DNA from: Hyphomonadaceae bacterium
GTDB lineage: Bacteria > Pseudomonadota > Alphaproteobacteria > Caulobacterales > Aquidulcibacteraceae
NCBI GenBank assembly: GCA_041917055.1
Contig: JAYRYJ010000003.1
Location: 153,959-217,958 of the forward strand
Direction: 5' to 3'
Length of the DNA: 64,000 nucleotides
The notes beneath the pieces were generated by a model. The model was not told the origin of the DNA and did no database searches. It was given only the letters and a program-made list of their open reading frames with translations. Shown in pieces: positions 336 through 23,794 of the stretch (position 1 is the stretch's first letter; every line of letters starts with the position of its first letter). A program made the position numbers and the translations under genes.

Positions 336-352
336 TTGGCAAAAAAATTGCA
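336..352 (+). promoter_or_regulatory. Candidate sigma-54 (-24/-12) promoter TGGC-N7-TTGC upstream of flagellin-family gene
   Basis: Sequence tTGGCaaaaaaaTTGCa at 337-352 fits the TGGCACG-N4-TTGC spacing exactly (GG 338-339, GC 350-351), 22 nt upstream of ATG 374. A sigma-54 enhancer-binding protein is encoded at 12421-13902. Confidence 0.45.
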
Positions 353-373: not shown

Positions 374-1315
374 ATGGGATTTGGACTGAGCGCATTAACA
401 AATGCTTCGGCTATGGCAGTAAGAAGCCATAATCATGCGCGCGCAAACCTAGAAAAGTCCTCTGCCCGACTTGCCACAGGACAAAAAGTTTCCTCCGCAA
501 AAGACGATGGAGCAGGGTTTATCACCAAAACTACCATGACCAACGAAAGCAATACTTGGGAGTGGCGTAGTTCGGAATTGAAAAGATTTTCCGCAAATTC
601 GGAGCTAAATCAGTTTGTAGTTGAAGAAGGTCTCACTCTTCAAAGAAAGGCGCAACAAATCCTTGCATTTGCGGCAAATACGCAAGCTGGAAGTTCTGAA
701 CGCCAAAAATATGCGCTTGAATGGGCTGAACTTGGTGCCCAGCAAACCGCACTCATAAATGCCCGCAATATGTCACTGGAAAACTATGGCTCTGCTAGTC
801 TTGCCATGACTGGTTATGGCGGCGAGTGGGCATTTGACCCGTATAACACCGATAGTTTGCTAGGAGATGTAACGATTGTCGATGCATGGTGGATGGGCGT
901 AATCACAACAGGTCAGGCGGGGGCGGGCTATACCCCCACAGTGATTACCGTCAATTCTGATTTTTTAAATGCTAGTCAAGCCAATTTAACCCAGGCCGCT
1001 ACCGAAATGTCGGGGTCGGGTGCGGGTATTGCGCGCTCTATTCAAAGAGCTGTACCCGGGATAGCTGGTTCAGTAGATAAAATGGATCGCCTCAAAGCTT
1101 TCTCTGACAAAATGGATGCTATTATTGAAAATGCAAATTCACAGGCTTTTGACACGGATTTGGAAATTGAGTCTGCGAAACTTTCAGCCGCAAAGGCGAG
1201 GATTGAATTATCTCAAAATTCGATTAGCCTATTTTCGAATGCGTTTCGAAGCTATGTGTCAGGGCTCTTGGGCTTTGTTATGAATTCACAGCAATCAATT
1301 ATTAGAACTGTATGA
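374..1315 (+). CDS. Flagellin-family protein (flagellin N-terminal domain; divergent C-terminus)
   Basis: N-terminus LSALTNASAMAV...RLATGQKVSSAKDDGAGF matches the conserved flagellin N-domain (ILTNxSAMxAL...RLSSGLRIxSAxDDAAG). AAGG RBS. 313 aa. Confidence 0.55.
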   Translation: MGFGLSALTNASAMAVRSHNHARANLEKSSARLATGQKVSSAKDDGAGFITKTTMTNESNTWEWRSSELKRFSANSELNQFVVEEGLTLQRKAQQILAFAANTQAGSSERQKYALEWAELGAQQTALINARNMSLENYGSASLAMTGYGGEWAFDPYNTDSLLGDVTIVDAWWMGVITTGQAGAGYTPTVITVNSDFLNASQANLTQAATEMSGSGAGIARSIQRAVPGIAGSVDKMDRLKAFSDKMDAIIENANSQAFDTDLEIESAKLSAAKARIELSQNSISLFSNAFRSYVSGLLGFVMNSQQSIIRTV

Positions 1316-5001: not shown

Positions 5002-5119
5002 TTCTCAATAGAGAATTAAATTAAAGCCCGTAATTTTAATAAAATCCGCGTCTTCCAAATAACCGGAATGAAACCGCAATGTGATATTCAAACCACGCCA
5101 AGAATGTGGCGGGGGCGAA

Positions 5120-8100
5120 ATGAGTATCGTCGATACGAGCGGATTGTTCAATACAATATATAGTGCACGGTCATATTCTGCACCATCTACACCCTCACGT
5201 CCGTCCGATGCCACAACCCAATATGATAAAAATGCGCCTTGGTCGCCCAGCGCCCCAAAAATAAATGAATCTGCTGAATTGAAGCGCGTAATGGCGGCGA
5301 AATCAGTTTTTGACAATGATGCAGTTAAAATAAAAGCCATGAAAATGTCAAAAGAGAGCGACGCAAAAAAACTATTCGCTCTTCATAAAGCAATGAATCG
5401 AGTGAATATCATCGCTAAAGAAGCCGCAAAAACAACAGTTTCGGATTCGCAACGTGCAAATTATGAAAAGCGCTTCAAAGCAGGCATGAAGGAAATCGAC
5501 GAATATATGACCGGTCTGTCGCTTTCAAATGCCGATTTAATCAAAGGGCTAAGAAATAATGTATTGGAAACCCGCGATTTAAAACAGATTTCGGGAATTA
5601 TGTCAGGTGACAGTTTCGAAGTTTCAAGCGCCGATATGGAAGTGTCGCAATTCGAAAATGCCGCACCCTTTGACATTACTTTGACCAATGCCACCAAGAC
5701 CGCGACTATCAATATCGATTTAAGCAAAATGGGCGAAACCCCGCGAACTCTTAACAATGTCGCGGATTTCATAAATGGGGAAATTGCCAAAGAAGGCTTT
5801 AGTTCGCATTTGAATGTTTCAAAGACTTTCAATAATGCCACTTTCACCTATCAATACGGCCTTAGTCTTGCCAAAACCACAGGCGAAGAAATTGTATTGC
5901 CTCAAGGCACTGGCGAACCGTCTGCGACAGGCGGTAATTTACTCAAGAACACGGAGTTTGACCAAAACAGTGCTGTAATTTGGACCGATTCTGTTTCTGC
6001 GCCGAATTATGTTTTAAATGGAGTAAGTTCAACTGACTTTTGGACTACGTCAGACATTGCTGAGGTATGGCACAGTGTGGACAATACACGGTCAGGCTTT
6101 TTCGATACCGACGCGGTCCTTGGTATAGATGCATATTCTCAGTCTATACAAACAATTGTCGGAAAAACATATAATTTGGAGTTCGACTGGGCGGGCCACA
6201 CTGAAAATAATAACGCCACCACTCGTGAAATGGAAGTTGTTTGGAATGGTGCAGTTGTACAAACGCTCGCTCCAACTGATATGGCGGTCTGGCGCGGCAA
6301 TAAAATTAGTTTGGTTGGGTCGGGTGGGACAGATACTTTAACAATTCGTGAAAAAGCTGGAAGCGGTTTAAACGACCATGTCGGCACTTGGGTAGATAAT
6401 ATTCGTCTAACCGAAGCGATCGAACAAACTGCATTCGTTCCTCAATTAGGCGCGAATTTAGTTCAAAATGGTTCGTTTGAAAACACAAACGGCGTTACCA
6501 ATTGGTTCAATAATAGCTCTAACATGACGGGCACCGAGGTGCGCGGGCAAATGGGTGATCTCGCCAATTGGACCAATCCGACTGCTACTCAATTTTCAGG
6601 CGGCTCTGATTTAATCAGGGGCAAAAATGGTGCACAAATCGGAACCGATGGCAATGTGATTGTTGAATTAGACGGTCAACCAGGTTCGCAGGCGGACGCA
6701 TTAGTGCAAAGCGTGCAAACCGAGGCAGGCAAAAATTATCAATTATCATTCGATATCAGCCATTATAATAATGTCGCTTTCAATACTTCAGGCGTGGAAG
6801 TATTATGGAATGGGCAAATCGTCGGCTTAGCCTATCCGGACACAAATGACGGCATCTGGCGCAATATCACCGTCAGTGTTACCGGCACAGGTGGAATGGA
6901 CCAATTACAATTGCGCGAATTGGCGTCCGAAAATGAATCCGGCGGCGCATTAATTGATAATGTCAAATTGCAGGAAATTCAAAACCTTGACCAACTTATG
7001 CCAAACACGGATGCGCCTACGCGCAAATATGGCGCAAATTTAATAAGCGACGGCGGATTTGAAAATTTGGCGGTTAATATTTTTTCGCCCTTAGTTCCGA
7101 CTTCGACAGCTTGGCAATCAAATAATGGCTATGCCGAAGTTTGGTCCCAAGGTTATGAGATGGGTGGGCCGCAATTTGCCAATGGACATTTCATTGAATT
7201 GGATCACGCAAATGCCGTCGATGCGATAAGACAAACAGTCGTTACCGAAGCGGGCGCTTTGTATCAATTCGATTTTTCCCATGCCATACGAAACTTAGAT
7301 AATTCTGGCGGCGCCGTTACCCCAATCGATGTGTCGAACACAATGGAAGTTGTGTGGAATGGTAAAGTGATGGGGACAATAACTGCGACGCCCGATGGAA
7401 AATGGAATTCAAGCAGGTTTGACCTTATTGGAACGGGCGGGAATGACGTAATAGAAATTCGCGAAACCGCCATCGGAAACGATTATCATGGCCCATTCCT
7501 TGATAATATGCAATTGCGGAAAGTTATTTCCGATAGTCCGTCTAATGCGTCGGGCAGCGGAATTGATTTGCTTAATATTGGCCAGAATGCATGGAACCAA
7601 GAAGGTTCTAATCGCCTCGTCGATCTTGCAGGCGTCAAAGCAGGGGATAGTTTCAAAATCAAAGTCGATGACAAGAAAATTGAAACAATAAAAATCACTG
7701 ACACAATGACACTAAGCCAATTGGCATCAAAACTTAGCTCTTTAATCGGCACGGCGGCGGGAACTGCGAAGGTCAAATCAACCGGACTTTCGCAAAAAAT
7801 CGTTCTTGATCCGAAATTGCGCCATCGCATCGAAATCATTGCCAGTGACATTAAAGTCTCGGCACTAGACGAATTAGGTCTTAATGAGGGCGTCGCGCGC
7901 AAACTTGTGACCGGAAAAGATCTAAAGAAAAGCCCCGCACCGAAAACCGGAATAAATTCCAAAGAGATTGCGGCAATTGAGTTCAAAACCGATTATTCGA
8001 TTGATACAAAACTTCATGCCAAAGACGCAACTACCGCCTTAGAAGGAATGATGCGGCGGGTGCGATTGGCTTATAAAACCGATATGGGAGTTCTAAAGCC

Positions 8101-8194
8101 ATCAGCGACCGGAACCCCTGCCCCACAAATCAGCGCCGCCGACGCCGCAAAAATCAATATGTATAAACAAGCATTAGCAAGATTAAGCGGTTGA
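5120..8194 (+). CDS. Large (1024 aa) repeat protein: N-terminal low-complexity region, three tandem ~160-aa beta-sandwich-like domains, C-terminal Lys-rich region. No signal peptide
   Basis: Three internal repeats share the pattern NG(S/G)FE...Y(N/Q)L(E/S)FD...(M/V)EV(V/L)WNG..V.......W.......GTGG.D.L..RE....G....DN(I/V).L. Start assigned to ATG 5120 (GGGGG RBS). Function unknown. Confidence 0.5.
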   Translation: MSIVDTSGLFNTIYSARSYSAPSTPSRPSDATTQYDKNAPWSPSAPKINESAELKRVMAAKSVFDNDAVKIKAMKMSKESDAKKLFALHKAMNRVNIIAKEAAKTTVSDSQRANYEKRFKAGMKEIDEYMTGLSLSNADLIKGLRNNVLETRDLKQISGIMSGDSFEVSSADMEVSQFENAAPFDITLTNATKTATINIDLSKMGETPRTLNNVADFINGEIAKEGFSSHLNVSKTFNNATFTYQYGLSLAKTTGEEIVLPQGTGEPSATGGNLLKNTEFDQNSAVIWTDSVSAPNYVLNGVSSTDFWTTSDIAEVWHSVDNTRSGFFDTDAVLGIDAYSQSIQTIVGKTYNLEFDWAGHTENNNATTREMEVVWNGAVVQTLAPTDMAVWRGNKISLVGSGGTDTLTIREKAGSGLNDHVGTWVDNIRLTEAIEQTAFVPQLGANLVQNGSFENTNGVTNWFNNSSNMTGTEVRGQMGDLANWTNPTATQFSGGSDLIRGKNGAQIGTDGNVIVELDGQPGSQADALVQSVQTEAGKNYQLSFDISHYNNVAFNTSGVEVLWNGQIVGLAYPDTNDGIWRNITVSVTGTGGMDQLQLRELASENESGGALIDNVKLQEIQNLDQLMPNTDAPTRKYGANLISDGGFENLAVNIFSPLVPTSTAWQSNNGYAEVWSQGYEMGGPQFANGHFIELDHANAVDAIRQTVVTEAGALYQFDFSHAIRNLDNSGGAVTPIDVSNTMEVVWNGKVMGTITATPDGKWNSSRFDLIGTGGNDVIEIRETAIGNDYHGPFLDNMQLRKVISDSPSNASGSGIDLLNIGQNAWNQEGSNRLVDLAGVKAGDSFKIKVDDKKIETIKITDTMTLSQLASKLSSLIGTAAGTAKVKSTGLSQKIVLDPKLRHRIEIIASDIKVSALDELGLNEGVARKLVTGKDLKKSPAPKTGINSKEIAAIEFKTDYSIDTKLHAKDATTALEGMMRRVRLAYKTDMGVLKPSATGTPAPQISAADAAKINMYKQALARLSG

Positions 8195-8232
8195 CACCTA
8201 AATTTAAACCAATATTCGCTCGATAATTTTTT

Positions 8233-8252
8233 TAGTTACTTCTCCGTAACTA
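8233..8252 (+). terminator. Candidate hairpin terminator after the large repeat-protein gene
   Basis: TAGTTAC-ttctcc-GTAACTA perfect 7-bp stem followed by GGGGTTTTATATTT. Confidence 0.25.
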
Positions 8253-8482
8253 GGGGTTTTATATTTCAATCACAATATTTTGTGCGATTTGTTACGGTGG
8301 CAACCCCCTTGCTAAAAAGCACATAGGTAATAATAAATAATCAGAAATAATTCCGAAAAAAATTATTCAATAAATACAAAGAGAAAACCAGTATTCTCGC
8401 GTTTTGGTTAATTTTACTGTCGCAATTTTAATAAATCGGTAACCTTGTATCCCTAATCGTCGAAAAACAGACGAGAATTATA

Positions 8483-8869
8483 ATGACAAAAGTCCTAGTC
8501 GCCGATGACGATCAATTACTTCTAAGATATCTTTCGCTACACTTGTCAGCATCCGGGTATCTAGTATCCGAGGCCACAAGCGGAAATGAAACGATAGAAT
8601 TAATAAAGCAAAACCCGCCAGATATATTGATTCTAGACTCTATGATGCCACATGGAAATGGTACAAGTGTTGTTGAATTTATTAGGTCAAGCGCTTCATT
8701 GCAAGATTTACCAATAATAATGCTTACCGCGCGGAAAAGTGGCGACGACAAAATAAGCGCATTTGAGGCTGGTGTTGATGATTATATCGTTAAGCCCTTT
8801 CATTTCGGCGAATTAAAATCAAGAATTGCCCGAATTGTCAGCAGGAGCAAGGTCAAATGGAGCGCATAA
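8483..8869 (+). CDS. Single-domain response regulator (CheY-like receiver)
   Basis: VLVADDDQLL...DILILDSMMPHGNG...LTARKS...GVDDYIVKPF: complete REC domain with phospho-acceptor Asp. Confidence 0.8.
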   Translation: MTKVLVADDDQLLLRYLSLHLSASGYLVSEATSGNETIELIKQNPPDILILDSMMPHGNGTSVVEFIRSSASLQDLPIIMLTARKSGDDKISAFEAGVDDYIVKPFHFGELKSRIARIVSRSKVKWSA

Positions 8870-9639
8870 TAGGCTTTATTATTGCGTCTTTGTTTGTGGC
8901 AACTCCTTCCTTTGGCGCACAATGTTCAGACAAATTAGCAAGATTTGGCTTTGAGACCGGTTATAATCAATTGGGCGCCAATCTAAATAATAATGATTGG
9001 CACACGCAAAGCATTGGATTTTTTTCCAAAAATGAAAACTGCGGAGGAAGCATTTTTGCCCGAATTGACAAAAAAACCAGATATTCAAAAACGGACACAA
9101 GTCTCTCATTAGATTTCAACCAAAAAGCAAATGAAACGGACAGTTTTTCTTTGGTTATGGAAACAGCGGCAGACCCGGAATTTTCGGCAAAATTTTCGGC
9201 AAATTTTGAATATTCACGTCTATTAAAAACCGAATCTGACACTTTTGGCAGTGTAATCTTGGGTGCTTCGATTGGATACGCAAAATATCAATTAACGGAT
9301 CTTGCAAAAATTGGTATTCAGGGCGAAATCTACCCTAAGCACTTTCCTGGTTGGATAAACGGTTCTATTGCGCAAGTTTTTGCATATGATAAAGCGCTTC
9401 CGCTTTCTTTTTCTGCGCGATTAAGCCTACCGGTTTCTGATAAGATTATTGCATCAATAGGCGGCGGGCGATATTTTGAAACCTATGCGCAAGATTATAT
9501 GAAAACCGCCGAATATTCAGCCGGACTTCACATAAAACTTACCGAAAAATTTGATATTCGCCTTAATTATCAAACTCTGGCGAGAGAAGGTTTGCCGACC
9601 TTAAACGGCCTTGGCTTGGCAATTGGTTTAAGCCTATGA
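8857..9639 (+). CDS. Secreted beta-rich protein (possible periplasmic/outer-membrane component of the exopolysaccharide-like module)
   Basis: Signal peptide MERIIGFIIASLFVATPSFGA. Alternating hydrophobic/polar segments. Start overlaps REC gene stop by 13 nt. Confidence 0.45.
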   Translation: MERIIGFIIASLFVATPSFGAQCSDKLARFGFETGYNQLGANLNNNDWHTQSIGFFSKNENCGGSIFARIDKKTRYSKTDTSLSLDFNQKANETDSFSLVMETAADPEFSAKFSANFEYSRLLKTESDTFGSVILGASIGYAKYQLTDLAKIGIQGEIYPKHFPGWINGSIAQVFAYDKALPLSFSARLSLPVSDKIIASIGGGRYFETYAQDYMKTAEYSAGLHIKLTEKFDIRLNYQTLAREGLPTLNGLGLAIGLSL

Positions 9640-10685
9640 GTGATTATAGCGCCCAATTCTTAATGGGACTTGGACTATCATTGATTCTGGTTGCCTATTT
9701 CATAGTAATTTATGTTGGCATTAAGCGCAAAATTCTTACACATCGCGAAAAATCTATCAATTTGCAAAAAGCGAAACTTACTGACGAATTGATTGTCAAT
9801 TCAATGATATTCGAAAATGAAGGGCGCTTTGAGCAATTAGGAATCAATAATTCAATGATTCTAGCTAAAGTTTTCGCAAATATGGTGGCATTCTTGGATG
9901 ATGAAAAAAGCTCCAGAGAATTAGTCGCTTATTGCTCAAAGCTAAAATTAGAAAAAACCTTGATAAAACTTTCCAAATCCAAAAATGAAGAAGATAGGAT
10001 TATGGCGTGCCAAGCATTACGCTTTTTTCGAAATCGCGCTGATGCTTTGATAGAAGTCGCAAAGACTGATTTAAGCCAAAGAGTTCGGGTCGAAGCAATA
10101 TTATCTTTGGTTCATTCTTATAAAAGACCTAGTTTTGAAGAATGGTCCCGATGGATATCACTTGCAAGCCCAACCCCAAATGTTGCCATCAAAAGCTTAT
10201 TCAAACGGTCTGAAATAATCGGCATTCACAATTTAAGAAAAATAATATTGCGCTCGAATTGTGATGATATGACCAAGACTTGGGCTTTGGATGAAGTCGC
10301 AAATCGCGATCCCGCACGCGCAAATTCAATCGTCGAGAAACTTATCAATACTGACAATTTGCCAAAGCCTTATATTCGAACAATGATTAATATCATCAGT
10401 TCGCCACGTTTGCTTTCAATAGCATTTGCGCGTTTTTCAAACTCGCCACATTGGGAATTGCGCGAAGCGTGTTGCAAAACCGCCGCATCTATCTATGCCT
10501 TTGAATTATTGGATTCAGTAATGGCATTGATTAATGATTCCGATTTTCGCGTCCACCGTGCCGCAATGCAAGCAACCAAAATATTGGCCGGAATTGGCGA
10601 ATTTCCAGATCCACGTGCTATTCGCTATGGCGCAAAACCGATTTCCGCCAAAACTTCAAAACCTTTTGTGGTGAAGGCTGCATGA
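9636..10685 (+). CDS. Membrane-anchored HEAT-repeat protein
   Basis: N-terminal TM helix (LMGLGLSLILVAYFIVIYVGI). Repeated HEAT/PBS-lyase-like units (EDRIMACQALRFF; RVRVEAILSL; FRVHRAAMQATKILAGIG). ATGA overlap with upstream gene. Confidence 0.55.
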   Translation: MSDYSAQFLMGLGLSLILVAYFIVIYVGIKRKILTHREKSINLQKAKLTDELIVNSMIFENEGRFEQLGINNSMILAKVFANMVAFLDDEKSSRELVAYCSKLKLEKTLIKLSKSKNEEDRIMACQALRFFRNRADALIEVAKTDLSQRVRVEAILSLVHSYKRPSFEEWSRWISLASPTPNVAIKSLFKRSEIIGIHNLRKIILRSNCDDMTKTWALDEVANRDPARANSIVEKLINTDNLPKPYIRTMINIISSPRLLSIAFARFSNSPHWELREACCKTAASIYAFELLDSVMALINDSDFRVHRAAMQATKILAGIGEFPDPRAIRYGAKPISAKTSKPFVVKAA

Positions 10686-12112
10686 GTATCGATTTTGCCC
10701 TAATTATCGAGGCCATCGCGCTTTTGATAATTTTCTCTGGCATAATGCATGGGGTTTTTGCGACATTGCAATTATTTGTCGCCTATGGCGAATATTATTG
10801 CTTACCGCCTATAAATGAAACCAAGGAGCAATGGCTTCATTATGCCGAATTTGCACCGTCAATTTCAATATTAGTTCCAGCGTTCAATGAAGAAAAAACC
10901 ATTCTTTCGAGTGTTGGGGCATTGCTCGCCAATGAATATCCAGACTTTGAATTGATTGTAATAAATGACGGGTCCATCGATGCGACTTCTCAATTATTGC
11001 GTGAAGAATTTGATTTAACACCAATTGAAAAGCCCGAACTTGGGGTTTCTTTTGCAAATTCTTTGCATCATAGACAAATCAAAGAAATTTATCGTTCGCG
11101 CTCATTTAGCAATTTGACGCTTATTGATAAGGAAAACGGCGGCAAAGCTGATGCATTGAATGCCGGCGTTAATATTGCGAAAGGCGAATATATTTGCGTC
11201 ATTGACGCCGATTCAATTCTCGATAAAGACGCATTATTGCGCGCGTCAAAAGCATTTATTAACTCACCCAAGCAGATTGTTGCGATTGGTGGCGCGATTA
11301 GAGTTGCAAATGGCTGCAAGATTAAGGGTAATGAAATATCTGAAATTGGCCTCCCTAAAACCCTTTTGCCATTATTTCAAACCGTTGAATATCTAAGAAC
11401 TTTCCATATTGCGCGCACTGCTATGAGTACAGCAGGCGCTTTGTCGCTTATTTCCGGTGCATTCGGATTATTTTCGCGTGATATTATTGTGAATGTCGGC
11501 GGCTATTCGCGCAACACTGTCGGCGAAGATTATGAATTGTGCCTTCGCATTCACCGTTATTTAGGCGACAAAGGAATTAATGACAAAACTATGGTTTATT
11601 GCCCCGAGGCAATTTGTTGGACGCAAACCCCCGAAAATCTCTCTAGCCTTCGTAATCAAAGAATAAGATGGCAAAAAGGCGCATTAGAGGCGTTGGGGCA
11701 AAATTCAAGATTAATGCTTAATCCAAAATATGGGCGTACAGGTACAATATCAAGTTTTGAAAGCCTGGTTAGCGACGTGCTTACGCCATTAACTGAGTTT
11801 TTGGGCCATTTAATAACCCCTATTGCCGCTATTTTTGGAATACTTAGCATCAAATATTATCTTGCATATTTTGCAATCTCCGCTGCTTTTGGCGTGCTGC
11901 ATTCTGCGGGTGCAATAGTGCTTGAAGAAATGCGGTTTCGTAGATTCCCCAAGATTTCAGATCTTTTTATTCTTTTCGGAATTTCTTTACTTGAGAACTT
12001 TGGTTATCGGCAATTATGCGGGGTCTGGCGATTAATGGGTTTCATCCAGTATTTACAAGGAAAAAAGGAATGGGGAAAAATAGAGCGGCAAGCATTTCTG
12101 ACTTCCGAATGA
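10682..12112 (+). CDS. Processive family-2 glycosyltransferase (polysaccharide synthase; PgaC/NodC/BcsA-like)
   Basis: N-terminal TM, GT2 core with DGS (INDGSIDAT), DAD (VIDADS), GED (VGEDYELCLRI) and QxxRW (QRIRWQKG) motifs, C-terminal TM helices. ATGA overlap with upstream gene. Confidence 0.75.
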   Translation: MSIDFALIIEAIALLIIFSGIMHGVFATLQLFVAYGEYYCLPPINETKEQWLHYAEFAPSISILVPAFNEEKTILSSVGALLANEYPDFELIVINDGSIDATSQLLREEFDLTPIEKPELGVSFANSLHHRQIKEIYRSRSFSNLTLIDKENGGKADALNAGVNIAKGEYICVIDADSILDKDALLRASKAFINSPKQIVAIGGAIRVANGCKIKGNEISEIGLPKTLLPLFQTVEYLRTFHIARTAMSTAGALSLISGAFGLFSRDIIVNVGGYSRNTVGEDYELCLRIHRYLGDKGINDKTMVYCPEAICWTQTPENLSSLRNQRIRWQKGALEALGQNSRLMLNPKYGRTGTISSFESLVSDVLTPLTEFLGHLITPIAAIFGILSIKYYLAYFAISAAFGVLHSAGAIVLEEMRFRRFPKISDLFILFGISLLENFGYRQLCGVWRLMGFIQYLQGKKEWGKIERQAFLTSE

Positions 12113-12441
12113 AATCGGATGAATTCGAAGCCGAAATAACAAAACTTAGAATCAAATATAAAGCGAAACTTGCAATATCGCGTTGTGAGATTTTGAATTT
12201 TATTGATCAAATAGAAGAATTTCCACACGATTCCATAAATTTCGATCAAATGAAAATATTGATACACACTTTGGCCGGCAATGGCGCGACCCTAGGGTTT
12301 GCAACCATATCAAATGCCGCCTCGAAACTCGATTCCTATCTCCAAGAATTCGCTATCAGAGAATATGATTTGCCGACATTAAAACAAATGTCGCGCGACC
12401 TAACGAAAGCAATCGAAAAATCAATTCGCACCGACTTTTAA
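12109..12441 (+). CDS. Hpt (histidine phosphotransfer) domain protein
   Basis: ILIHTLAGNGATLGFATISNAASKLD matches the Hpt HxxKGxxxxxG signature. ATGA overlap with the GT2 gene stop. The upstream in-frame extension from 12016 is likely not translated. Confidence 0.6.
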   Translation: MKSDEFEAEITKLRIKYKAKLAISRCEILNFIDQIEEFPHDSINFDQMKILIHTLAGNGATLGFATISNAASKLDSYLQEFAIREYDLPTLKQMSRDLTKAIEKSIRTDF

Positions 12442-13902
12442 CAGGTGTTCTTCCAAATCATATTCTTTTAATTTGCGATATAGGGTCGAGCGACCAATCC
12501 CTAAACGACGCGCAATTTCGGTCATGTGGCCTGAATATAAATCAATTGCATATTCGATCAAATCGCGTTCGATTTGTTCAAGTTTGCGCAAATGGCCACC
12601 TGGATCAAAAATCGGAATTTGTTGCGCTGTTTCACCATTTGCCGCCACCATCGGCATTGGCATTGGAAGGGGCGCATTGGCGATTTCTTTGAATTCCATT
12701 TCAAACGAATTTGCAGGTTTCAAATCCGGCATTGCCGAAACCAATTGCGGGAAATCTTCATTGGTAAGGAAATCACCATCTGACAAAACCATTGCACGAT
12801 ATAGCGTATTTTCCAATTGGCGCACATTGCCGGGCCAATCGAAGGCCTGCAACAGTGCTTGGGCATTTGGTGCAACGCCCAAAACTTTTTTACCCATGTC
12901 GGCATTAAAGCGCGAAATGAAATGTTTTGACAAGGCCGGAATATCTTCTTTGCGTTCCCGCAAAGTCGGGGCATCAATCGGGAAAACATTCAAGCGATAG
13001 AATAGGTCTTCGCGGAAACGCCCTTCTTGCACCAAACGCGCCAAATCCTTATTAGTGGCGGCAACAATTCTTACATCAACCTTAATCGGGCGTTTTGAAC
13101 CGATTGGATCAACTTCGGATTCTTGAAGTGCGCGCAATAATTTGACTTGCATTTCCAACGGCAATTCGCCGACTTCATCAAGGAATAAAGTGCCGCCGTC
13201 CGCCTCTTGGAATTTACCCATATGGCGTTCATTCGCGCCGGTAAATGAACCTTTTTCGTGACCGAATAGAATGGATTCGACCAGGTTTTCAGGAATCGCA
13301 CCGCAATTGACAGTAATAATCGGGCGGTGGGCGCGCTCGGATTCGCCATGAATTGAACGAGCAATAACCTCTTTACCAACACCGGATTCACCCAAAATCA
13401 AAACCGGAATATTGGTTGAGGCCGCTTTTTGACCAAGACGAATGACTTGTTTCATGCTAACAGCGCCCGCAATCATATCAGCAAAAGTCATTGAGCCTGA
13501 TGCACGTTTTTTAAGGCGGCGCACTTCATTAGTGAGTTCACCCATTTTAAGGGCGTTTCGGATTGAAACTAAAACCCGTTCGGGTGATGCGGGTTTAACA
13601 AAAAAGTCGTTCGCCCCGCCCTGCATGGCTTTAACCACAGTATCGATGCCACCTGAAGCAGTCAGAACGACGACGGGCAAATCTTCGCGTTTTTGGCGGA
13701 TTTGGGCTAAAGCCTCCATGCCACTTACACCCGGCATAATTAGGTCTAGCAAGACAACATCGACTGCGGCATCATTGGCTTGAGCAATTGCTTGTTCGCC
13801 GTCTTCTGCCATTCTTGTGGCAAAGCCTTGTCTTTCGACCGCTGCTTGAAGCAAGCGACGTTGCGCCGGATCGTCATCGACGATTAAAATAGTCTTTGTC
13901 AT
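12421..13902 (-). CDS. Sigma-54-dependent Fis-family response regulator (NtrC/NtrX/FlbD-like enhancer-binding protein)
   Basis: REC domain ([14 protein letters not shown]...VLLDLIMPG), AAA+ sigma-54 interaction domain (GESGVGKE; GAFTGA-like GSFTGA; ESELFGHEKG), C-terminal Fis HTH ([18 protein letters not shown]). Confidence 0.85.
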
Positions 13903-14024: not shown

Positions 14025-14504
14025 TTACTCCCTGTCCCAAATTGAATTTGGCGGCCTTTTTCTCACAATGATACGTAATTTTTCGGCCTCTGATGGTGAT
14101 TTTTCGACCAAAAGTCTCATTATCTGACTATCATCGTGAAAGACATGGCCCTTAATCCCATCAAGAACCGCTTTTGCAACATTATCGACGTCAATTTTTG
14201 GATATTCTGGATTAAGATAAATCGAAATATCAATTTCAAAATCACCCCATTTCGGTCTAAGCGGCATATAGGTGCGAAAGAATTTATGCAATTCTTGTTT
14301 ATAGACCCTTGCTTGTGAGGTCACTTCATTGATTTCAAATTCCCATTCATTTTCGCCCGCAAAACCGCGAACCACTGCGCCGCCTATATATTTGTTATTC
14401 TCAGTCACGCGTGCAGCTTGCCTGATAATCGCCAAACGCGAGGGCGATGCGGTTTGCATCAGAATCGGTCCATGAATAAATGTCCGAATAATCGTCTTTG
14501 CCAA
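14025..14504 (-). CDS. RusA-like Holliday-junction resolvase fragment (probable phage-derived remnant; start uncertain)
   Basis: KIDVDNVAKAVLDGIKGHVFHDDSQI matches the RusA catalytic signature DxDNxxKAxxDAL...DDxQV. N-terminal ~35 codons overlap the convergent upstream ORF, and the typical RusA N-terminus (LPWPPS) is missing. Confidence 0.4.
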   Translation of the reverse strand: MAKTIIRTFIHGPILMQTASPSRLAIIRQAARVTENNKYIGGAVVRGFAGENEWEFEINEVTSQARVYKQELHKFFRTYMPLRPKWGDFEIDISIYLNPEYPKIDVDNVAKAVLDGIKGHVFHDDSQIMRLLVEKSPSEAEKLRIIVRKRPPNSIWDRE

Positions 14505-15423
14505 GCAATAAATAAAGCGTCAAAGACGGGCGATTATTGCCCAAGGGCCAAACAACGTCGCGCAATCTTAGACGAATATTTTTTGTCCCCAATTTGACAT
14601 TTGCATGGCCACCTTGATCATGGATTTTGAAGTCGGATTTGGTTTTATATTCCTTGCCGTCAAAACCCGATGCCCAACAAGTGAAAATATTTGCCTTTTT
14701 GTATTGGTTTGGGCCGTGATCATAATTGCCGAAAACTTTTTCGCCTTTTTCGTTTTTCGCAATATCAGAAATATGCCAATTCTTAGCTGCTATCGAATGC
14801 GTTTCACCCAAATTCAAAATTTCGCCTTTTTTGGTTTGGATTTTACAAGTTTGCGCATTTATGGCGCCGGTAAAGCCAGCTGCATTAGGTTCGAAAACAA
14901 TATTGCAGCCTTCCAAGGCCGTGAATTCCGAAACTTTTGGCGTTGTATAATTTGCGCCTGCTTTTGGTTCGAATTGGGTAATATTGATTTTACCGCTTTG
15001 ATAATCAGGACTTAGACCCCAAATGCGCGATCGCAAAACATTGCCGTGTTCTGAACCTTCAAAATATTCAATTAATAATGCAAAATCGCCAAATTCTTTG
15101 CTTTCAATAGAACTTAGGACAATGTGAAAACGATTATGGGATTTTTCTTTTGGCGTATCTAATTCAGGTTCAAAAAATACCTGCAACTCATTGTCCCATT
15201 CACCTTTTAAGGTTTCGAACAATTGTTTTGTTTGATTTTGCAGAACTTGTGCACTCAAAGTCACTGGCGCGGGGGAATGTGGCTTTGCATTTGGCGCAAC
15301 ATCTGTTTTTGGGAAAATGACAGGTGTTCCGACCGTTTGCTTTAATTCAGTTTGCGGAAACGGCGGAATATGCGGATTTTCGCCGCCATTCATTCCCAAA
15401 AATAAAGACAAAGCCAAAAGCAT
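14401..15423 (-). CDS. Secreted hypothetical protein (possibly lipocalin/CpcT-like beta-barrel)
   Basis: Signal peptide MLLALSLFLGMNGG. 340 aa, no recognisable catalytic motifs. Family assignment is a guess. Confidence 0.4.
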   Translation of the reverse strand: MLLALSLFLGMNGGENPHIPPFPQTELKQTVGTPVIFPKTDVAPNAKPHSPAPVTLSAQVLQNQTKQLFETLKGEWDNELQVFFEPELDTPKEKSHNRFHIVLSSIESKEFGDFALLIEYFEGSEHGNVLRSRIWGLSPDYQSGKINITQFEPKAGANYTTPKVSEFTALEGCNIVFEPNAAGFTGAINAQTCKIQTKKGEILNLGETHSIAAKNWHISDIAKNEKGEKVFGNYDHGPNQYKKANIFTCWASGFDGKEYKTKSDFKIHDQGGHANVKLGTKNIRLRLRDVVWPLGNNRPSLTLYLLLGKDDYSDIYSWTDSDANRIALAFGDYQASCTRD

Positions 15424-15480
15424 ATTTCACCTATTGGCTAAGATTCGCACGATTTGTTAAACAAATCTTATGCGGCGCAA

Positions 15481-16647
15481 TCAAATTTCTGCCATTAATG
15501 TCAAAGTCATTGTCTGATTGTGCAAACTACAAAGACGCGTCTTTTTATGAGGTGCGATTTCACCATACGAATGGAAGCCTATTAATTGTGAATCCGGCAA
15601 TAATTCTTTGACTTTGGAAATTTCGCGCGAGGTTTCATCGCCCATCAAAAGTCGCCGCCCAACGCAAGAAACGCCCAATGCGATAACTGGTTCGTGACCA
15701 TCACTAATTTCTTTGAAGGCCTCAATCGCTTTTTGCGCACTTTGTGCTGCGCCATTTACCAACATATTATTGGTGGCACGCATTAGACGCGCATTCCAAC
15801 CTTGAGGAACGTCCCCGGCAAAAGTCAATGAGCCTTCTTTTTCGTCACAGGCAAGCAGGGTGCGAACAATATCATGCTCAGGATAAGATGGATGCCAAAT
15901 CCTTAAAGGAAACAAAAGGCCGGACGCAGGAAGGTTTTTACTTTCTTCACCCATTTGTGCAGCATAAGTCGCGAATGCCGATTTACCGCTTAATTCAGTC
16001 ATAATATTGGCATTGGATTTGGTAATCGTCCAAGTATCGCCAAAATCTTCCCAGCCACCATCAGAACCATAAGCAATTCTTAGATTATTGCCATAAAAAC
16101 CAATTGCAATCACGCGGTTTTCGACCGCCTTGCCTTTTTCAATTATCAAAGTCTTGGTAAATCTTGCGCCATCGCCTGCTAAACCGCCACTGACCGGAAT
16201 TCGACCACCAAGGACGGACAAAATACCGCCCACGATGTCGGAGCCATTGACATTCAATCCATCAGAAATGACATAAACGCCCGCTAAGTCAGGTTCTTTC
16301 AATCTAAGGCCTAAGCGCGCACCGACATTAAAACTGTCATTTGGCGAAGTGATAGTCTCGGTGGCCATTTCCAATTTCGTGCTTTCAAAGCCGATCGCAA
16401 TTCCGACACAACCTTTGTCGAGCATAGAATTATTTGAAAACGAGGTTCCGGCAGAACAACCGGTCACGATTGCATTTGGAAATTTCTCCTGCAATTTTTG
16501 CGGAATTTCACAATTTGAAATTTCGTCTGTCGGACCAAAAAGCAATATAAGATTTGGCGGGCACGCCCTGTCGCCGAAATCATTACTCAATAATTCTTCT
16601 GCATTTGAAAAAGTTTGTGACCACATATCATTATCCTTGGGTAACAT
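15481..16647 (-). CDS. FIST-domain (FIST N + FIST C) putative sensory protein
   Basis: 388 aa soluble protein with domain-scale resemblance to FIST signalling proteins. Moderate confidence from pattern only. Confidence 0.4.
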   Translation of the reverse strand: MLPKDNDMWSQTFSNAEELLSNDFGDRACPPNLILLFGPTDEISNCEIPQKLQEKFPNAIVTGCSAGTSFSNNSMLDKGCVGIAIGFESTKLEMATETITSPNDSFNVGARLGLRLKEPDLAGVYVISDGLNVNGSDIVGGILSVLGGRIPVSGGLAGDGARFTKTLIIEKGKAVENRVIAIGFYGNNLRIAYGSDGGWEDFGDTWTITKSNANIMTELSGKSAFATYAAQMGEESKNLPASGLLFPLRIWHPSYPEHDIVRTLLACDEKEGSLTFAGDVPQGWNARLMRATNNMLVNGAAQSAQKAIEAFKEISDGHEPVIALGVSCVGRRLLMGDETSREISKVKELLPDSQLIGFHSYGEIAPHKKTRLCSLHNQTMTLTLMAEI

Positions 16648-16809
16648 TCTGCCCTAAGATTGTTAATTTTTTTTTGAAGCCACTGCGATTGAATTGCATT
16701 ATTATAGCAGAATTTTGCATAAACCATTGCAAAAATACTTGACAGTGCGGTGCAACTAATGCGCCTATTGCAAAAACAAAGCATTTTATACCGGGCGAAA
16801 GAGGAGATT

Positions 16810-17586
16810 ATGGAATTGGCAATCAATAAAAATGTCAATGCGGCAATCGATGTAAAGCAAGTTGCGCGCGACTCCCATTGGGGCTGGATGTCTCGCGGTT
16901 GGGAAACCTTCACGAAGAGCCGTGCACCAAGTTTGAAAATCGGTGCAGGCGTTGTTGTATTTTCCGGTCTTCTGGTTTTCATTCTCTATAAAGCAAACCT
17001 TGGGGTATTTATTCCGGCGGCCTATGGCGCATTTGCTTTAGTTGGGCCTGTGATTGCGACCTTGATTTATGCCATAAGTCGCAAACAAGAAGATGACGGT
17101 AAAGTGCGCAAATTGCGCACTGTCAATCTTAGCCCCACTTCCCCTTCCCAAGTTGGCTTCATCGGCTTTACGCTTTTAGTGATTGTGATGATTTGGGTAC
17201 TTATGGCGCTTTTGATTTACGCTTTGTCGGTCGGCATTGGCGCACCAATGAATGAAAGTGATTTTATCAGATATGTCCTTTCAACACCACGCGGGCTTAT
17301 GATGGCGGTTTTGGGAACAGGTGTAGGCGGCACTTTGGCATTGATTGGTTATGCGATTTCGGCAATTTCAATTCCTTTGGCTTATGAGCGCGATATAGAC
17401 GCATTAAGCGCAATGGCGATTTCGGCCCAAGCGGTGATTAAAAACCCAACTACAATGCTTTCTTGGGCATTTGTGATTGGCGTCGTGGTGGCACTTTCCG
17501 CGCCATTCGCATTTTTGCCAATGATTGTCGCCTTCCCATGGTTAGGTCACACCACATGGCAAGCATATCGCGATTTGATTGATTGA
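16810..17586 (+). CDS. Integral membrane protein, DUF2189-like (paralog 1)
   Basis: HWGWMSRGWETF... then 5-6 TM helices. Paralogous (about 45% identity) to the next gene. Confidence 0.4.
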   Translation: MELAINKNVNAAIDVKQVARDSHWGWMSRGWETFTKSRAPSLKIGAGVVVFSGLLVFILYKANLGVFIPAAYGAFALVGPVIATLIYAISRKQEDDGKVRKLRTVNLSPTSPSQVGFIGFTLLVIVMIWVLMALLIYALSVGIGAPMNESDFIRYVLSTPRGLMMAVLGTGVGGTLALIGYAISAISIPLAYERDIDALSAMAISAQAVIKNPTTMLSWAFVIGVVVALSAPFAFLPMIVAFPWLGHTTWQAYRDLID

Positions 17587-17607
17587 TTTTCCATTGACGG
17601 GGGCAAA

Positions 17608-18387
17608 ATGTCAAAGGATTATATCGCAAATCGTTTAATGGTCGCGACATTACCAAAGGACGCCCATTGGGGTTGGTTGGCGCGCGGTTGGGCGACATTT
17701 AAGAATAGTGTCCGCCCTAGTTTTATTATTGGTACCTATGTTGTCGGCCTTTCATGGGCTTTGATTCTGTTTCTTTATACAATCAAATTTCCGACATTAA
17801 TTCCCGCGGCTTATGGTGGCTTTATCCTGATTGGGCCGATTATTGCGACCTTTATTTATGCTATAAGTCGTGAAGTCGATAAGAATGGTTCGGCAAATAA
17901 ATTTCGCAAAATTGATATGGCGCCCAATTCCAAATCGCAATTGGGATTTATTGGTTTCTCGTTGTTTTTTGTCGTGGTGGTTTGGCTTATTTTCGCGCAT
18001 TTGATTTGGTCCATGGCGGTCGGAATGGGAACAGCGATGGATGAAGCTAAGTTTCTTCGCCTTGTCTTTCAAACCTCGCGCGGCCTGACTATGTTGGTAA
18101 TCGGCACGGCAGTTGGCGGAGTTTTGGCGACCATTTGTTTTTCCATTGCCGCAATTTCATTACCGCTGACTTTTGACAAAGATATTGACGCATTAAGTGC
18201 AATGGCATTTTCAGTTATGAGCGTTTTCAAGAATCCGTTGCAAATGGCGTCTTGGGGTTTTGTTATTCTTATTAGTATTGCGCTTTCGGCAATGGTCTTA
18301 TTCATTCCAATGATTGTGGTCTTCCCATGGCTGGGCCATGTTGCGTGGCAGGCATATAAGGAATTGATTGTCGAAAAGCCGTCATAA
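17608..18387 (+). CDS. Integral membrane protein, DUF2189-like (paralog 2)
   Basis: [12 protein letters not shown]..., same architecture. Ends [16 protein letters not shown] versus FPWLGHTTWQAYRDLI in paralog 1. Confidence 0.4.
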
Positions 18388-18535: not shown

Positions 18536-20701
18536 TTATTTCTTCAATTTAACAAGACGCAATGCATTAAGACTTACAATAATCGAAGATGACGACATTG
18601 CAATTGCGGCAATTTGTGGCGTTACCAGACCGATAATGGCAATTGGAACAGTGATTAAATTATAAAGTGCCGAGAACCAAAAATTCTCCAAGACCCTTTG
18701 TTTTGCGAGTTTTGAAATTCTTATCGCTTCCAAAATCGCGCCTAATTCTTGGCCTTGGAAAACCATATCTGCGGCTGATTGGGACGCATCCGCAGCCGCA
18801 CCCGGCGCGATTGAGGCATGGGCTTTGGCAAGGCTTGGGGCATCATTAAGGCCGTCACCAACCATAATCGCCATTTTCCCCTGTGCTTTTAATTCATCAA
18901 GGCGTTTGGCTTTATCAAATGGCGATTGGGCAAAGGCGAATTTTTCAATTCCCGTTTCTTGTGCCACGTATTCAACCGCAGATTTTCTATCGCCCGAAAG
19001 GATTTCGATTTCGTAGCCAAGCTCTCTTAGGGCTTTGACGGTTTTCACCGTATCTTTGCGCAAAGTATCCTCAAAGACAAATCTTTGCGGTGCATTATTG
19101 GCGTGTTTGAACCATAATTCGGTGTCGCTTTCTTCATTAGTTTCGACACCAACCCATTCGGCGCGACCCATTCGTGCAGGCGCGCCATCAATCAAGCCTT
19201 CGACACCGAGTCCCGCATGTTCTGTGACATCCTTAGCAGCCGAACCAGGGCCTGCGAGGCGTGCAATTGCGCGTGCAAGTGGGTGACGTGAAGCGCGCGC
19301 CAAAATCGCCGCATTTTGCAAAACCGATGGCGTGATTTCATCAATGTTTTTGATATTGGGTTGCCCCAAAGTTAAAACCCCGGTTTTGTCAAAAACAATA
19401 TTTGTCGCCTGTGCCACACGTTCCAAAGCATCGCCAGATTTAACCAAAATCCCTGCTTTAAAAAGACGTCCGGATGCCACAACCTGCACCGCAGGTACGG
19501 CAAGACCCAATGCGCAAGGACAAGTTATAATCAAAACTGCACAAGCATTCCAAATCGCTTTTTCAAAACCCGCACCGATTATTAACCACCCAATAAAGGT
19601 CAAAAGCGCCGCACCATGAACAATCGGCACATATAAAGACGCAGCTTTATCGGCAAGACGCACATATTTGCTTTTTGATTGCTCGCCGGTTTCGACCAAA
19701 CGCGCAATTTCGTTTAGGAAACTATCGTCGGATAATTTTGTGGCGCGCATAATCACTTTGCCGGAAATATTCAATACACCCGCGCGAATTGCCTGCCCCA
19801 CGCCGATTTGCACGGGAATTGTTTCGCCGGTTATCATTGAAAAATCGCCTTGCGATGCGCCTTCGGTGATTTCGCCATCGATTGGAAATCTATCCCCCGG
19901 TAAAATTACTAATTCGTCGCCCAAATTTATGTTTGAAACCGCAACCGAAGTGCTTGTGCCGTCTTTATTTAGCCTTTGCGCTGTAACGGCCTGAAGCGCC
20001 AATAATTCTTGTGCCGCAATGCGCGATTTTTGGCGTAAATTATGGTCAAGATAGCGCCCGATTAGCAAAAAGAATTCGAGCATCACAATTGCATCAAAAA
20101 ACGCGTGCTGCCCGCGATTTACGGTTGAATAAAGGCTTAAAGCCGCAGTCAGAAGAATGGCAATCGAAATCGGCACATCCATATTGGCATGGCCCTTTTT
20201 TAAAGTGTTCCAAGCATTTTTGAAAAACGGCATGCCCGAATACCAACCGGCCGGAATTGCGATTGCAGCAGCCAACCAATGAAGGAATGTGCGCGTACCA
20301 TCGCCCATTTCGCCATATTTATGCGCCCACCAAACCGGTTCGGTAAGCATCATAACGAACATAGTTGCCGCACCCGCGACCGTCATAGCATATAATAATT
20401 CGCGCGATTCGCGGTCTTTTTGGGCATTGGCGATTTCGGGCGCGAATGGCATTGCGCCATAACCTAAATCCACAATTTTTTGAACAATCGAACGCGAATC
20501 TAATTTTTCATCATGCCATTTCGCCACAAATCTTCCGGTCGAAAGATTAAGGCGTGCCTCATCAATTCCCTCAATTGCGGCGACACCTTTTTCGATTTTC
20601 CCTAAGCAATTGGCGCATTTAGCGCCGCGCACCAAAAGTTCCAAAACAAAACCACCATCGCGGGATTTCACAAAAGCGCGTGGATCGGCGGCATTTGACA
20701 T
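18536..20701 (-). CDS. ccoI: Copper-translocating P1B-type ATPase CcoI/FixI
   Basis: HMA CxxC (CANCLGKIE), CPC (ITCPCALG), DKTGTLT ([10 protein letters not shown]), GDGxND (VGDGLNDAP). Sits within fixGHIS. Confidence 0.85.
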
Positions 20702-20745
20702 TGGCGCCGCGATTTCAAGCCCTGAAGGGCAGCCCCGATCTATTT

Positions 20746-21243
20746 CTAGCGTATTGATAGCATAGTCTCCGTTTCAAAATCAGGCGCACCCTGTTTTACG
20801 GCTTTGGCTTTAAAATCCCACTTTCCGGGGCCAAGTTTTTGAACATGGGCTGTGTATTCGCCAGGCTTAGTTTCATTGAATGCAAGTTGCATGTCTTCTT
20901 TATTATCGACAGTGCGACCGACCATTCCGGTCATATTTGCGCCTGTTACAGGCTTTTTATCTTTGTCGGTAAGGCTGGCAATGAATAAAGCGTCGCCGCC
21001 CGCACCCCTCTGCATTCCCAATTCCATTTGCCAACCCAAAGCCGATTGCTTGTGGCGTGCGTCAATCTTTTCATTGAATTTCAAACCTTCAACATAGGCA
21101 TGGCCATATTCACCGGGCGCGGTTGTAATCGCTTTATAGGCAAAAAAGACATTTACCGAAATGATTACCCCGAACATTGCCAATAGCACAAAAAGCACAT
21201 GCCAACCTGTCCAAGGTTTTTGAGTTTTCTTAGTTTGTTCCAT
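20746..21243 (-). CDS. ccoH: CcoH/FixH cbb3 oxidase assembly protein
   Basis: 165 aa, single N-terminal TM (WTGWHVLFVLLAMFGVIISVNVFF). Position between ccoG and ccoI. Confidence 0.7.
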   Translation of the reverse strand: MEQTKKTQKPWTGWHVLFVLLAMFGVIISVNVFFAYKAITTAPGEYGHAYVEGLKFNEKIDARHKQSALGWQMELGMQRGAGGDALFIASLTDKDKKPVTGANMTGMVGRTVDNKEDMQLAFNETKPGEYTAHVQKLGPGKWDFKAKAVKQGAPDFETETMLSIR

Positions 21244-21257
21244 GGATTGAGATTAAC

Positions 21258-23792: not shown

Positions 23793-23794
23793 AT

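Follow-up and report, generated by a model that had tools for sequence, protein, structure and literature searches.

Synthase-dependent exopolysaccharides such as cellulose, poly-N-acetylglucosamine (PNAG), alginate, and Pel are central to biofilms, and nearly all of the known systems that produce them are gated by cyclic di-GMP (c-di-GMP). Enzymes of the BcsA, hyaluronan synthase, chitin synthase, and PgaC type polymerise nucleotide-sugar units and thread the polymer through their own channel. Here, we analysed a 64,000-nt stretch of DNA from a Hyphomonadaceae bacterium (assembly GCA_041917055.1, contig JAYRYJ010000003.1, positions 153,959–217,958; hereafter, the window), which contains a five-gene operon encoding a stand-alone receiver, an outer-membrane barrel protein, a membrane-anchored HEAT-repeat protein, a synthase of this type, and an Hpt protein. 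The operon appears to belong to a widespread and apparently uncharacterised synthase-dependent family, in which the partner subunit is new and control by a phosphorelay is probable.

Among the described systems, the Pga machinery (PgaABCD in Escherichia coli, HmsHFRS, and IcaADBC) is likewise built on a membrane-bound family-2 glycosyltransferase (GT2) synthase, whose model is the nearest named one to the GT2 of the window, and it has an obligatory small membrane partner (PgaD or IcaD), comparable with the HEAT-repeat protein here. It also has a porin that combines tetratricopeptide repeats (TPRs) with a barrel (PgaA) and a CE4 deacetylase (PgaB), and relatives of the module described here carry TPR-YaiO porins and CE4 deacetylases. 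However, the partner here is a 350-amino-acid (aa) HEAT solenoid, whereas PgaD is a protein of two transmembrane (TM) helices; the porin is of the YaiO family, not PgaA; and the window encodes no deacetylase. Control here seemingly lies with the receiver and the Hpt protein, whereas in Pga c-di-GMP acts at the PgaC–PgaD interface. The Bcs system (BcsA-BcsB, BcsC, and BcsG) has in common with the module a processive GT2 fold with a QxxRW motif, a dedicated cytoplasmic regulatory element (putative in the module), and an exporter of TPR-plus-barrel architecture, which most relatives of the module share with PelB as well as with PgaA and BcsC. In addition, a sulfatase-family transferase of the Bacteroidota relatives recalls the phosphoethanolamine transferase BcsG, which binds BcsA. 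Unlike Bcs, the module has no PilZ domain and no BcsB, and its proposed regulator is a separate receiver protein. The genes of the operon and the elements flanking it are as follows.

8483–8869, plus strand: REC, a single-domain response regulator of 128 aa (receiver only)
8857–9639, plus strand: YaiO-family barrel, 260 aa, secreted, signal peptide at about residues 1–20
9636–10685, plus strand: TM and HEAT-repeat protein, 349 aa, single-pass, TM helix at residues 9–27
10682–12112, plus strand: GT2 synthase, 476 aa, membrane-embedded, a processive family-2 glycosyltransferase
12070 or 12109 to 12441, plus strand: Hpt protein, 123 aa or 110 aa, depending on the start
12421–13902, minus strand: sigma-54 enhancer-binding response regulator (REC-AAA+-HTH_8 with a GSFTGA loop), convergent to the operon
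8298–8313, plus strand: candidate −24/−12 promoter TGGCAACCCCCTTGCT, inside the 288-nt gap upstream of the REC gene

An initial annotation, made from the letters of the window and a list of its open reading frames (ORFs), had described a five-gene same-strand operon at 8483–12441, and an ORF scan recovered it there. The GT2 carries all of the motifs of the QxxRW-type processive glycosyltransferase named in that annotation, namely D96 (DGS), D175xD177 (DAD), GED at residues 281–283, and QRIRW at residues 326–330, and it matched the Pfam family Glyco_tranf_2_3 (E = 8e−27). Its AlphaFold 2 (AF2) model (pLDDT 88, pTM 0.88) shows a GT-A domain flanked by a TM helix at the N-terminus and a helical bundle at the C-terminus; in other words, the enzyme does not have the layout of a soluble glycosyltransferase. 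The best Foldseek matches of the model were the Chlorella-virus and Xenopus hyaluronan synthases, BcsA, and fungal chitin synthases (PDB 9fmz and 9b8v, which bear on the binding of BcsG to BcsA, were among the matches), and phmmer aligned the GT2 to BcsA over residues 56–429. The GT2 is thus an inner-membrane synthase of the processive type, of the same kind as BcsA, hyaluronan synthase, chitin synthase, and PgaC. A profile comparison aimed at its substrate family found a nearest model but no assignment. PgaC_IcaA (TIGR03937) was by far the best curated model, with 151.6 bits over two partial stretches against a cut-off of 422.3, and the scores for CelA (TIGR03030; 56.9 bits, cut-off 699), BcsA (PRK11498; 28, cut-off 992), and NodC (TIGR04242; 36.8 bits, cut-off 550) also fell below their cut-offs.

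Relatives of the GT2 number in the thousands. Those ranked in the top 120 were all full-length, with 43–75% identity when the window's own protein was excluded, and many came from Alphaproteobacteria. Anchored on the GT2, we collected at least 80 related loci from species-representative genomes (designated here by L numbers), to which the locus counts that follow refer, and scanned them with profiles iterated from the window proteins. According to the record titles, these loci belong to approximately 17 phyla, including Pseudomonadota, Gemmatimonadota, Bacteroidota, Bacillota, Actinomycetota, Nitrospirota, Myxococcota, Acidobacteriota, Verrucomicrobiota, and Spirochaetota, and the lineages that carry the module come from soil, the sea, and the gut, with nitrifiers also among the carriers. 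One contig was binned as a haloarchaeon and should be treated with caution. Each of the 73 loci whose sequence extends at least 1.2 kb upstream of the GT2 gene had a gene encoding a TM helix followed by HEAT repeats; it was immediately adjacent in 70 of them and lay a few kilobases away in three Nitrospira loci. Of the 63 loci with enough flank, 42 had a receiver gene upstream on the same strand. A YaiO-family gene occurred in 30 of 46 diderm loci versus none of 16 monoderm loci, and an Hpt domain was found in 9 of 80. Therefore, the neighbourhood is conserved in related genomes: the HEAT-GT2 pair is universal in the listed loci, and the receiver lies upstream in two thirds. As judged from these gene orders and from that of the closest relative (below), the five-gene arrangement is far beyond chance.

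In the closest relative among the matches listed (L083), the GT2 is 75% identical to that of the window, and homologues of REC, the barrel, the HEAT protein, the GT2, and Hpt follow one another in the window's order with overlapping junctions. The flanks of L083 (an ABC-F protein upstream and PrmC downstream) are unrelated to those of the window. Because all five genes are kept in order amid unrelated flanks, they appear to move as a unit. Furthermore, the G+C content of positions 8001–12000 is 0.38–0.41, the lowest in the window (approximately 0.45 elsewhere), which, together with the unrelated context of L083, suggests that the five-gene cassette is horizontally mobile.

The HEAT-repeat protein scored 43.7 bits against HEAT_2 (cut-off 27.7) and has a single N-terminal TM helix (residues 9–27), followed by basic residues and then the repeats, which agrees with its first description as a membrane-anchored HEAT-repeat protein. 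Its predicted topology is N-out and C-in, with the solenoid in the cytoplasm. Across the family, the N-terminal TM helix is present in 58 of 59 members, and the positive-inside rule is obeyed in 57 of the 59. The protein had no NCBIfam match and no sequence match in the PDB. Direct searches for homologues returned few sequences (2 matches with a word-indexed search and 23 with an exhaustive profile search) because the solenoid diverges fast, and the family was recovered instead by iterating profiles within the GT2-anchored loci. In one low-GC Bacillota locus (L068), a single 973-aa frame consists of the TM-HEAT protein followed by the whole GT2, which is a natural fusion. A second HEAT-GT2 fusion is probable in L049, for which the evidence is weaker as the genome is high-GC. 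By Rosetta-stone logic, proteins fused in one genome tend to cooperate in others. As judged from the listed loci, the HEAT protein is the obligate partner of the GT2 synthase. In another locus (L032), a CE4-type deacetylase region is fused N-terminally to the TM helix of the HEAT protein, in keeping with an N-terminus outside the cytoplasm. Seven related loci encode CE4 proteins.

The initial annotation had all five ORFs overlapping by 4–13 nt at ATGA junctions. Overlaps do exist at every junction, but when read from the sequence, that between REC and the barrel is not an ATGA: the two genes overlap by 13 nt, with the ATG at 8857 and the TAA at 8867–8869. The barrel/HEAT and HEAT/GT2 junctions are ATGA overlaps of 4 nt. 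The GT2/Hpt junction is an ATGA (12109–12112) if the Hpt start is 12109, but gene callers place the start at 12070, which gives a 123-aa protein and a 43-nt overlap. Because Hpt in L083, as called there, has an identical 43-nt overlap and shares the N-terminus MGKNR, we judge 12070 to be at least as likely a start as 12109. The stretch between them, however, also encodes the conserved C-terminus of the GT2 and is under constraint for that reason, so that the L083 match is not decisive. Whichever start applies, the five genes are packed without gaps, and a gap of 288 nt precedes the REC gene. The remaining features of the described layout were found as proposed: REC is the first gene and Hpt the last, so that a stand-alone receiver and an Hpt protein bracket the operon (the Hpt match being just below its cut-off), and the sigma-54 response regulator lies convergently at the 3′ end (12421–13902, minus strand).

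The secreted beta-rich protein of that annotation proved to be a member of the YaiO family with a signal peptide. Over residues 44–259, it scored 35.4 bits against NCBIfam TIGR04390 (YaiO family; cut-off 32), whereas its match to the Pfam model YaiO (PF19413; E = 0.0015, 19 bits) was below the cut-off of 23.9. A profile built from it and its homologues in related loci retrieved proteins carrying PF19413. These homologues are mostly about 420 aa long, with N-terminal TPR repeats in addition to the YaiO domain (E = 2.6e−51 in L046), so that the window protein is a barrel-only version without the TPR arm found in most relatives. The structure prediction proposed as a check on an outer-membrane beta-barrel gave a signal helix followed by 12 long strands, and all of the top Foldseek matches were outer-membrane barrels (including OmpG, NalP, FapF, OMPLA, and KdgM), but the AF2 model, built from an 11-sequence alignment, reached a pLDDT of only 56 and was used for topology and strand count only. 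A PDB sequence search with the protein found nothing relevant. That the 260-aa protein is an outer-membrane barrel is well supported; the number of 12 strands, which comes from the model, is tentative.

YaiO is encoded in E. coli K-12 (NC_000913, 380069–384616) together with a deacetylase (yaiS), a GT2 (yaiP), and an acyltransferase disrupted by IS2 (yaiX). This locus resembles the module in that a YaiO-family barrel is encoded with a GT2 and a deacetylase, but it has no HEAT partner, REC, or Hpt, and E. coli YaiO is not detectably similar to the window barrel in a pairwise comparison. The comparison hints that the E. coli yai locus is a degenerate polysaccharide export module and suggests that YaiO barrels are generally exporters of GT2 products. 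In monoderms, a conserved membrane-anchored protein of about 740 aa, encoded just upstream of REC/HEAT-GT2 in L027 (4416–6641) and in 22 other, mostly monoderm, loci, may be an extracytoplasmic partner that replaces the porin. It had no significant Pfam, NCBIfam, or PDB sequence match.

In two Bacteroidota loci from Chryseobacterium and Pedobacter (L071, 7785–11252; L075, 2672–6208), the GT2 is fused to a sulfatase-family domain of about 650 aa, which is 35–41% identical to a PF00884 sulfatase-family protein encoded by a separate gene in another Bacteroidota locus (L046, 9267–11312). By analogy with BcsG, which modifies cellulose in this way, this suggests that the polymer of the Bacteroidota relatives may be decorated with phosphoethanolamine or phosphoglycerol. 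However, these transferases, whether fused to the GT2 or encoded beside it, resemble OpgB as much as BcsG and would also fit a product that is not a secreted exopolysaccharide. Such a product could be a periplasmic or envelope-retained glycan (osmoregulated periplasmic glucans are an example), a short oligosaccharide as made by NodC, or a glycolipid, and the barrel would then have another role. NodC has the same GT2 motifs and TM layout, and the predicted barrel, with only about 12 strands, is consistent with this view. We nevertheless regard it as very unlikely. The TPR-plus-barrel architecture of most relatives is a hallmark of synthase-dependent export, the porin is strictly limited to diderms among the listed loci, and the barrel gene is translationally coupled within the operon. 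Furthermore, 12-strand barrels of the KdgM type do pass oligosaccharides, and KdgM was among the Foldseek matches of the barrel model.

REC matched Pfam Response_reg (E = 2.9e−27) and has no output domain. Because it carries the acidic pocket D8-D10, the phospho-acceptor D51, T82, and K104, residues that are conserved across the receivers of the module, it should be phosphorylatable. The receivers encoded upstream of HEAT-GT2 in other phyla scored a median of 66 bits against the window REC, versus a median of 32 bits for the other receivers in the same loci (Mann-Whitney p = 7e−11), and the best-scoring of these other receivers are themselves proteins adjoining the HEAT gene. The receivers of the module thus form a coherent, dedicated subfamily that travels with HEAT-GT2. 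The Hpt protein carries the motif IHTLAGNGATLGF, with the pattern H-x-x-x-G-x-x-G-x-x-G, which is common to it and to the Hpt domains of relatives that pass the Pfam cut-off. A profile iterated from the window Hpt retrieved such passing domains in L013, L057, L051, and L058. The Hpt orthologue of L083 is 28% identical to that of the window and keeps the His motif.

The signalling genes found beside the module in relatives are of the same kind. In the Stutzerimonas locus (L058), one string of genes encodes an Hpt-REC-GGDEF protein, a CHASE3-PAS hybrid kinase, a 129-aa receiver, a TPR/YaiO protein, the HEAT protein, and the GT2, so that a complete relay is encoded together with the synthase. L085 has HEAT-GT2 beside two hybrid kinases, an Hpt, and a REC; hybrid kinase genes adjoin the module in L071 as well. 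In the Bacillaceae loci, an Hpt-REC-GGDEF-REC protein is encoded directly upstream of the HEAT gene, and further lineages have REC-REC or Hpt-REC-REC proteins beside the module. The Henriciella locus (L084) has no receiver, and a divergent MASE1-PAS sensor adjoins its module. What the variants have in common is a receiver in terminal position beside the HEAT gene.

The Hpt-REC-GGDEF(-REC) proteins of the Bacillaceae and Stutzerimonas relatives, the GGDEF proteins found near the GT2 in 7 of 80 loci, and the large MASE1-PAS sensor of Henriciella could also be read in another way: the actual allosteric activator would be c-di-GMP, with the HEAT protein or the GT2 as its receptor, and the phosphorelay would do no more than control a diguanylate cyclase whose gene lies elsewhere. 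The majority of the known synthase-dependent systems are indeed gated by this molecule. However, Pfam and NCBIfam found no PilZ, GIL, MshEN, or degenerate GGDEF/EAL domain in the five proteins, and the 64-kb window contains no GGDEF gene. Moreover, the receiver of most loci has no cyclase domain, and even in the variants that contain GGDEF, the protein terminates in an additional receiver, which adjoins the HEAT gene. For these reasons, we consider c-di-GMP gating of this kind to be improbable.

We think it reasonably likely that the operon encodes a synthase-dependent exopolysaccharide machine, as the initial annotation proposed, and that this machine is seemingly switched by phosphotransfer instead of, or besides, c-di-GMP. 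The processive GT2, its HEAT partner, the YaiO outer-membrane barrel, and the conserved neighbourhood argue for this proposal, as do the co-travelling receivers and the relay parts that recur in relatives. In the mechanism that we envisage, an unlinked hybrid histidine kinase would phosphorylate the Hpt protein, which would hand the phosphoryl group to D51 of the stand-alone REC. In its phosphorylated form, REC would then dock either on the GT domain or on the solenoid of the HEAT protein, and the synthase would be freed from auto-inhibition, in analogy to the action of c-di-GMP via PilZ in BcsA or via PgaD in PgaCD. The nascent chain would cross the periplasm and exit through the YaiO barrel. 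For the polymer itself, a beta-linked, N-acetylglucosamine-containing, PNAG-like homopolymer is our best guess, and a weak one, made because PgaC_IcaA is the nearest named model and CE4 deacetylases occur in relatives. In a more far-reaching form, which we put forward tentatively and regard as possible rather than probable, REC-(YaiO)-HEAT-GT2 would constitute an unrecognised pan-bacterial synthase family of approximately 17 phyla, monoderms included, in which the HEAT subunit is obligatory and is the docking site for the phosphorylated receiver.

There is a described case of a receiver with a comparable role. A report on Myxococcus xanthus EpsW (PMC12802240) describes a single-domain response regulator that activates exopolysaccharide synthesis by direct protein–protein contact with a biosynthetic enzyme and not by DNA binding. 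As in our proposal, a stand-alone receiver would act directly on a polysaccharide enzyme; the EpsW target, however, is the initiating phosphoglycosyl transferase of a Wzx/Wzy pathway, whereas here it would be a processive synthase with its HEAT partner.

In the genome of the window, Hpt may also phosphorylate the convergent sigma-54 activator, which would drive the upstream −24/−12 promoter, and the joint outcome would be transcriptional plus post-translational control. The activator matched Sigma54_activat (E = 8.7e−72), Response_reg (E = 1.6e−30), and HTH_8, and it scored below the cut-off of every NCBIfam equivalog. Upstream of the operon, TGGCAACCCCCTTGCT (8298–8313) has one mismatch to TGGCAC-N5-TTGCW with the GG-N10-GC spacing and is a candidate sigma-54 promoter. 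The 64 kb contain only two such sites, each of them between genes and in the correct orientation. In the 288-nt upstream gap, a search for repeats turned up no convincing binding site for an activator. Because the activator is absent beside L083, it is not part of the conserved module, and a lineage-specific transcriptional arm composed of the activator and the upstream promoter seems plausible but unproven. The Hpt gene (plus strand) and the activator gene (minus strand) overlap tail-to-tail by 21 nt (12421–12441), with no terminator-like site between them; therefore, transcripts reading through from the operon would run antisense to that of the activator. Scans for generic sigma-70 promoters and for terminators performed no better than on shuffled sequence.

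The Vibrio fischeri Syp system, an 18-gene locus of the Wzx/Wzy type, has a similar branching, in which the SypF Hpt feeds both SypG (a sigma-54 enhancer-binding response regulator that drives transcription of the polysaccharide locus) and SypE (a second response regulator, which acts post-transcriptionally). Likewise, the Hpt gene here has a sigma-54 activator on one side and the small receiver on the other, with a candidate −24/−12 promoter upstream. The proposed Hpt–activator link is not conserved in L083. If this branch were the only one, the signalling genes would act on transcription alone, from Hpt to the sigma-54 activator and on to the −24/−12 promoter, and REC would tune this route as a phosphate sink or competitor, making no contact with the synthase. 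The element at 8298–8313 would suit such an arrangement, as would the REC, GSFTGA-bearing AAA+, and HTH_8 domains of the activator. In addition, the activator and the small REC are the sole receivers in the window, which has one Hpt, and single-domain receivers are well established as phosphate sinks, CheY2 of Sinorhizobium being an example. However, L083 keeps REC and Hpt without the activator or such a promoter, and in different phyla these receivers accompany HEAT-GT2 irrespective of any sigma-54 activator in the vicinity. Control of transcription alone therefore seems unlikely to us; it is moreover compatible with direct switching of the synthase and does not exclude it.

Several points weigh against a phosphotransfer-switched exopolysaccharide machine. 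On the signalling side, the relay is incomplete within the 64-kb window, which has no histidine kinase (HisKA/HATPase ORF); of the earlier statement that a phosphorelay is wired into the synthase operon, the REC and Hpt components stand and relay parts recur in relatives, but the kinase is missing from the window. The Hpt match (Pfam Hpt, 22.8 bits, E = 1.1e−4) is just below the Pfam cut-off of 24.6, and about one third of the related loci, such as that of Henriciella, have no adjacent receiver. The direct REC–HEAT contact is purely inferential: no REC-HEAT or REC-GT2 fusion was seen among the related loci, and the literature search found no experiment on any member of the module. In some relatives, GGDEF lies within the receiver protein, and c-di-GMP could be the proximate signal there. 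As for the promoter, the total of two −24/−12 sites in the window is not above chance (3.4 expected), and no equivalent site was found upstream of the L083 operon. On the export side, the barrel model is of low confidence, and a 12-strand barrel would be narrower than those of PgaA and BcsC, which have 16 strands. Finally, the sugar specificity of the GT2 is not readable from sequence, and the absence of a deacetylase from the window speaks against the PNAG-like product.

We compared the operon with Pga/Ica, Bcs, NodC, alginate, and Pel, and the earlier statement that it is none of them holds: all of the curated models for such systems scored below their cut-offs, and no name was found in the literature. 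In its manner of working, the machine resembles the class of Pga, Bcs, Alg, and Pel, and PgaCD-PgaA is the nearest analogy in architecture. For Pga/Ica, the PgaC_IcaA score was insufficient, and the operon lacks the PgaD/IcaD partner, the PgaB/IcaB deacetylase (no CE4), and the PgaA porin. For Bcs, the CelA and PRK11498 scores were likewise too low, and PilZ and BcsB are absent. NodC was rejected on its score (36.8 bits versus 550), and none of the five proteins had a Pfam or NCBIfam match that would point to alginate or Pel. The E. coli yaiP-yaiO pair is not the same system, as YaiP is 26% identical over the GT-A core only and HEAT, REC, and Hpt are missing. Promonan of Sphingomonas is Wzy-dependent and hence unrelated. 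Xag-like clusters of iron oxidisers are described as pairing XagB with a BcsB-like protein, which the module family lacks. A full-text literature search covering YaiO, HEAT, synthase-dependent systems, and single-domain response regulators, with most subscription journals outside its coverage, found no description of the module.

The rest of the window contains several other features. The second −24/−12 box, TGGCAAAAAAATTGCA (337–352, plus strand), lies 22 nt upstream of a flagellin-like ORF (Flagellin_N; 374–1315, plus strand), a placement that fits the sigma-54-dependent flagellin expression of Caulobacter-like Alphaproteobacteria. Directly upstream of the operon (5081–8194, plus strand), a 1037-aa protein with three DUF642/choice-of-anchor-C repeats and a FlaEY_3rd match may relate to flagellin modification or regulation. 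Positions 14025–18387 hold an odd assortment of genes, namely those for a RusA-like resolvase, a member of the CpeT/CpcT family outside a cyanobacterial context, a FIST sensor that stands alone, and a tandem pair of DUF2189 membrane proteins. These are followed by an ordinary cbb3 oxidase cluster (18536–26606, minus strand), which is complete (ccoNOP), includes genes for a FixG-like ferredoxin and a P-type ATPase resembling FixI, and is in line with the window being of proteobacterial origin. An RHS-repeat ORF followed by an overlapping ORF (31599–33406, plus strand) and a tyrosine recombinase of the phage-integrase family (47613–48644, minus strand) may mark a toxin or mobile-element region.

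To the synthase-dependent exopolysaccharides, the module would add a widespread family with a new synthase partner, the HEAT solenoid, and a different control logic, namely a phosphorelay that ends in a stand-alone receiver. If the docking of the phosphorylated receiver on the HEAT subunit is true, no processive polysaccharide synthase before this one would have been under the direct control of His-Asp phosphotransfer in place of c-di-GMP. The finding also suggests a physiological role for orphan YaiO barrels as exporters of GT2-made polymers, which bears on the E. coli yai locus. With only five compactly arranged genes, the cassette is a tractable unit for heterologous expression.

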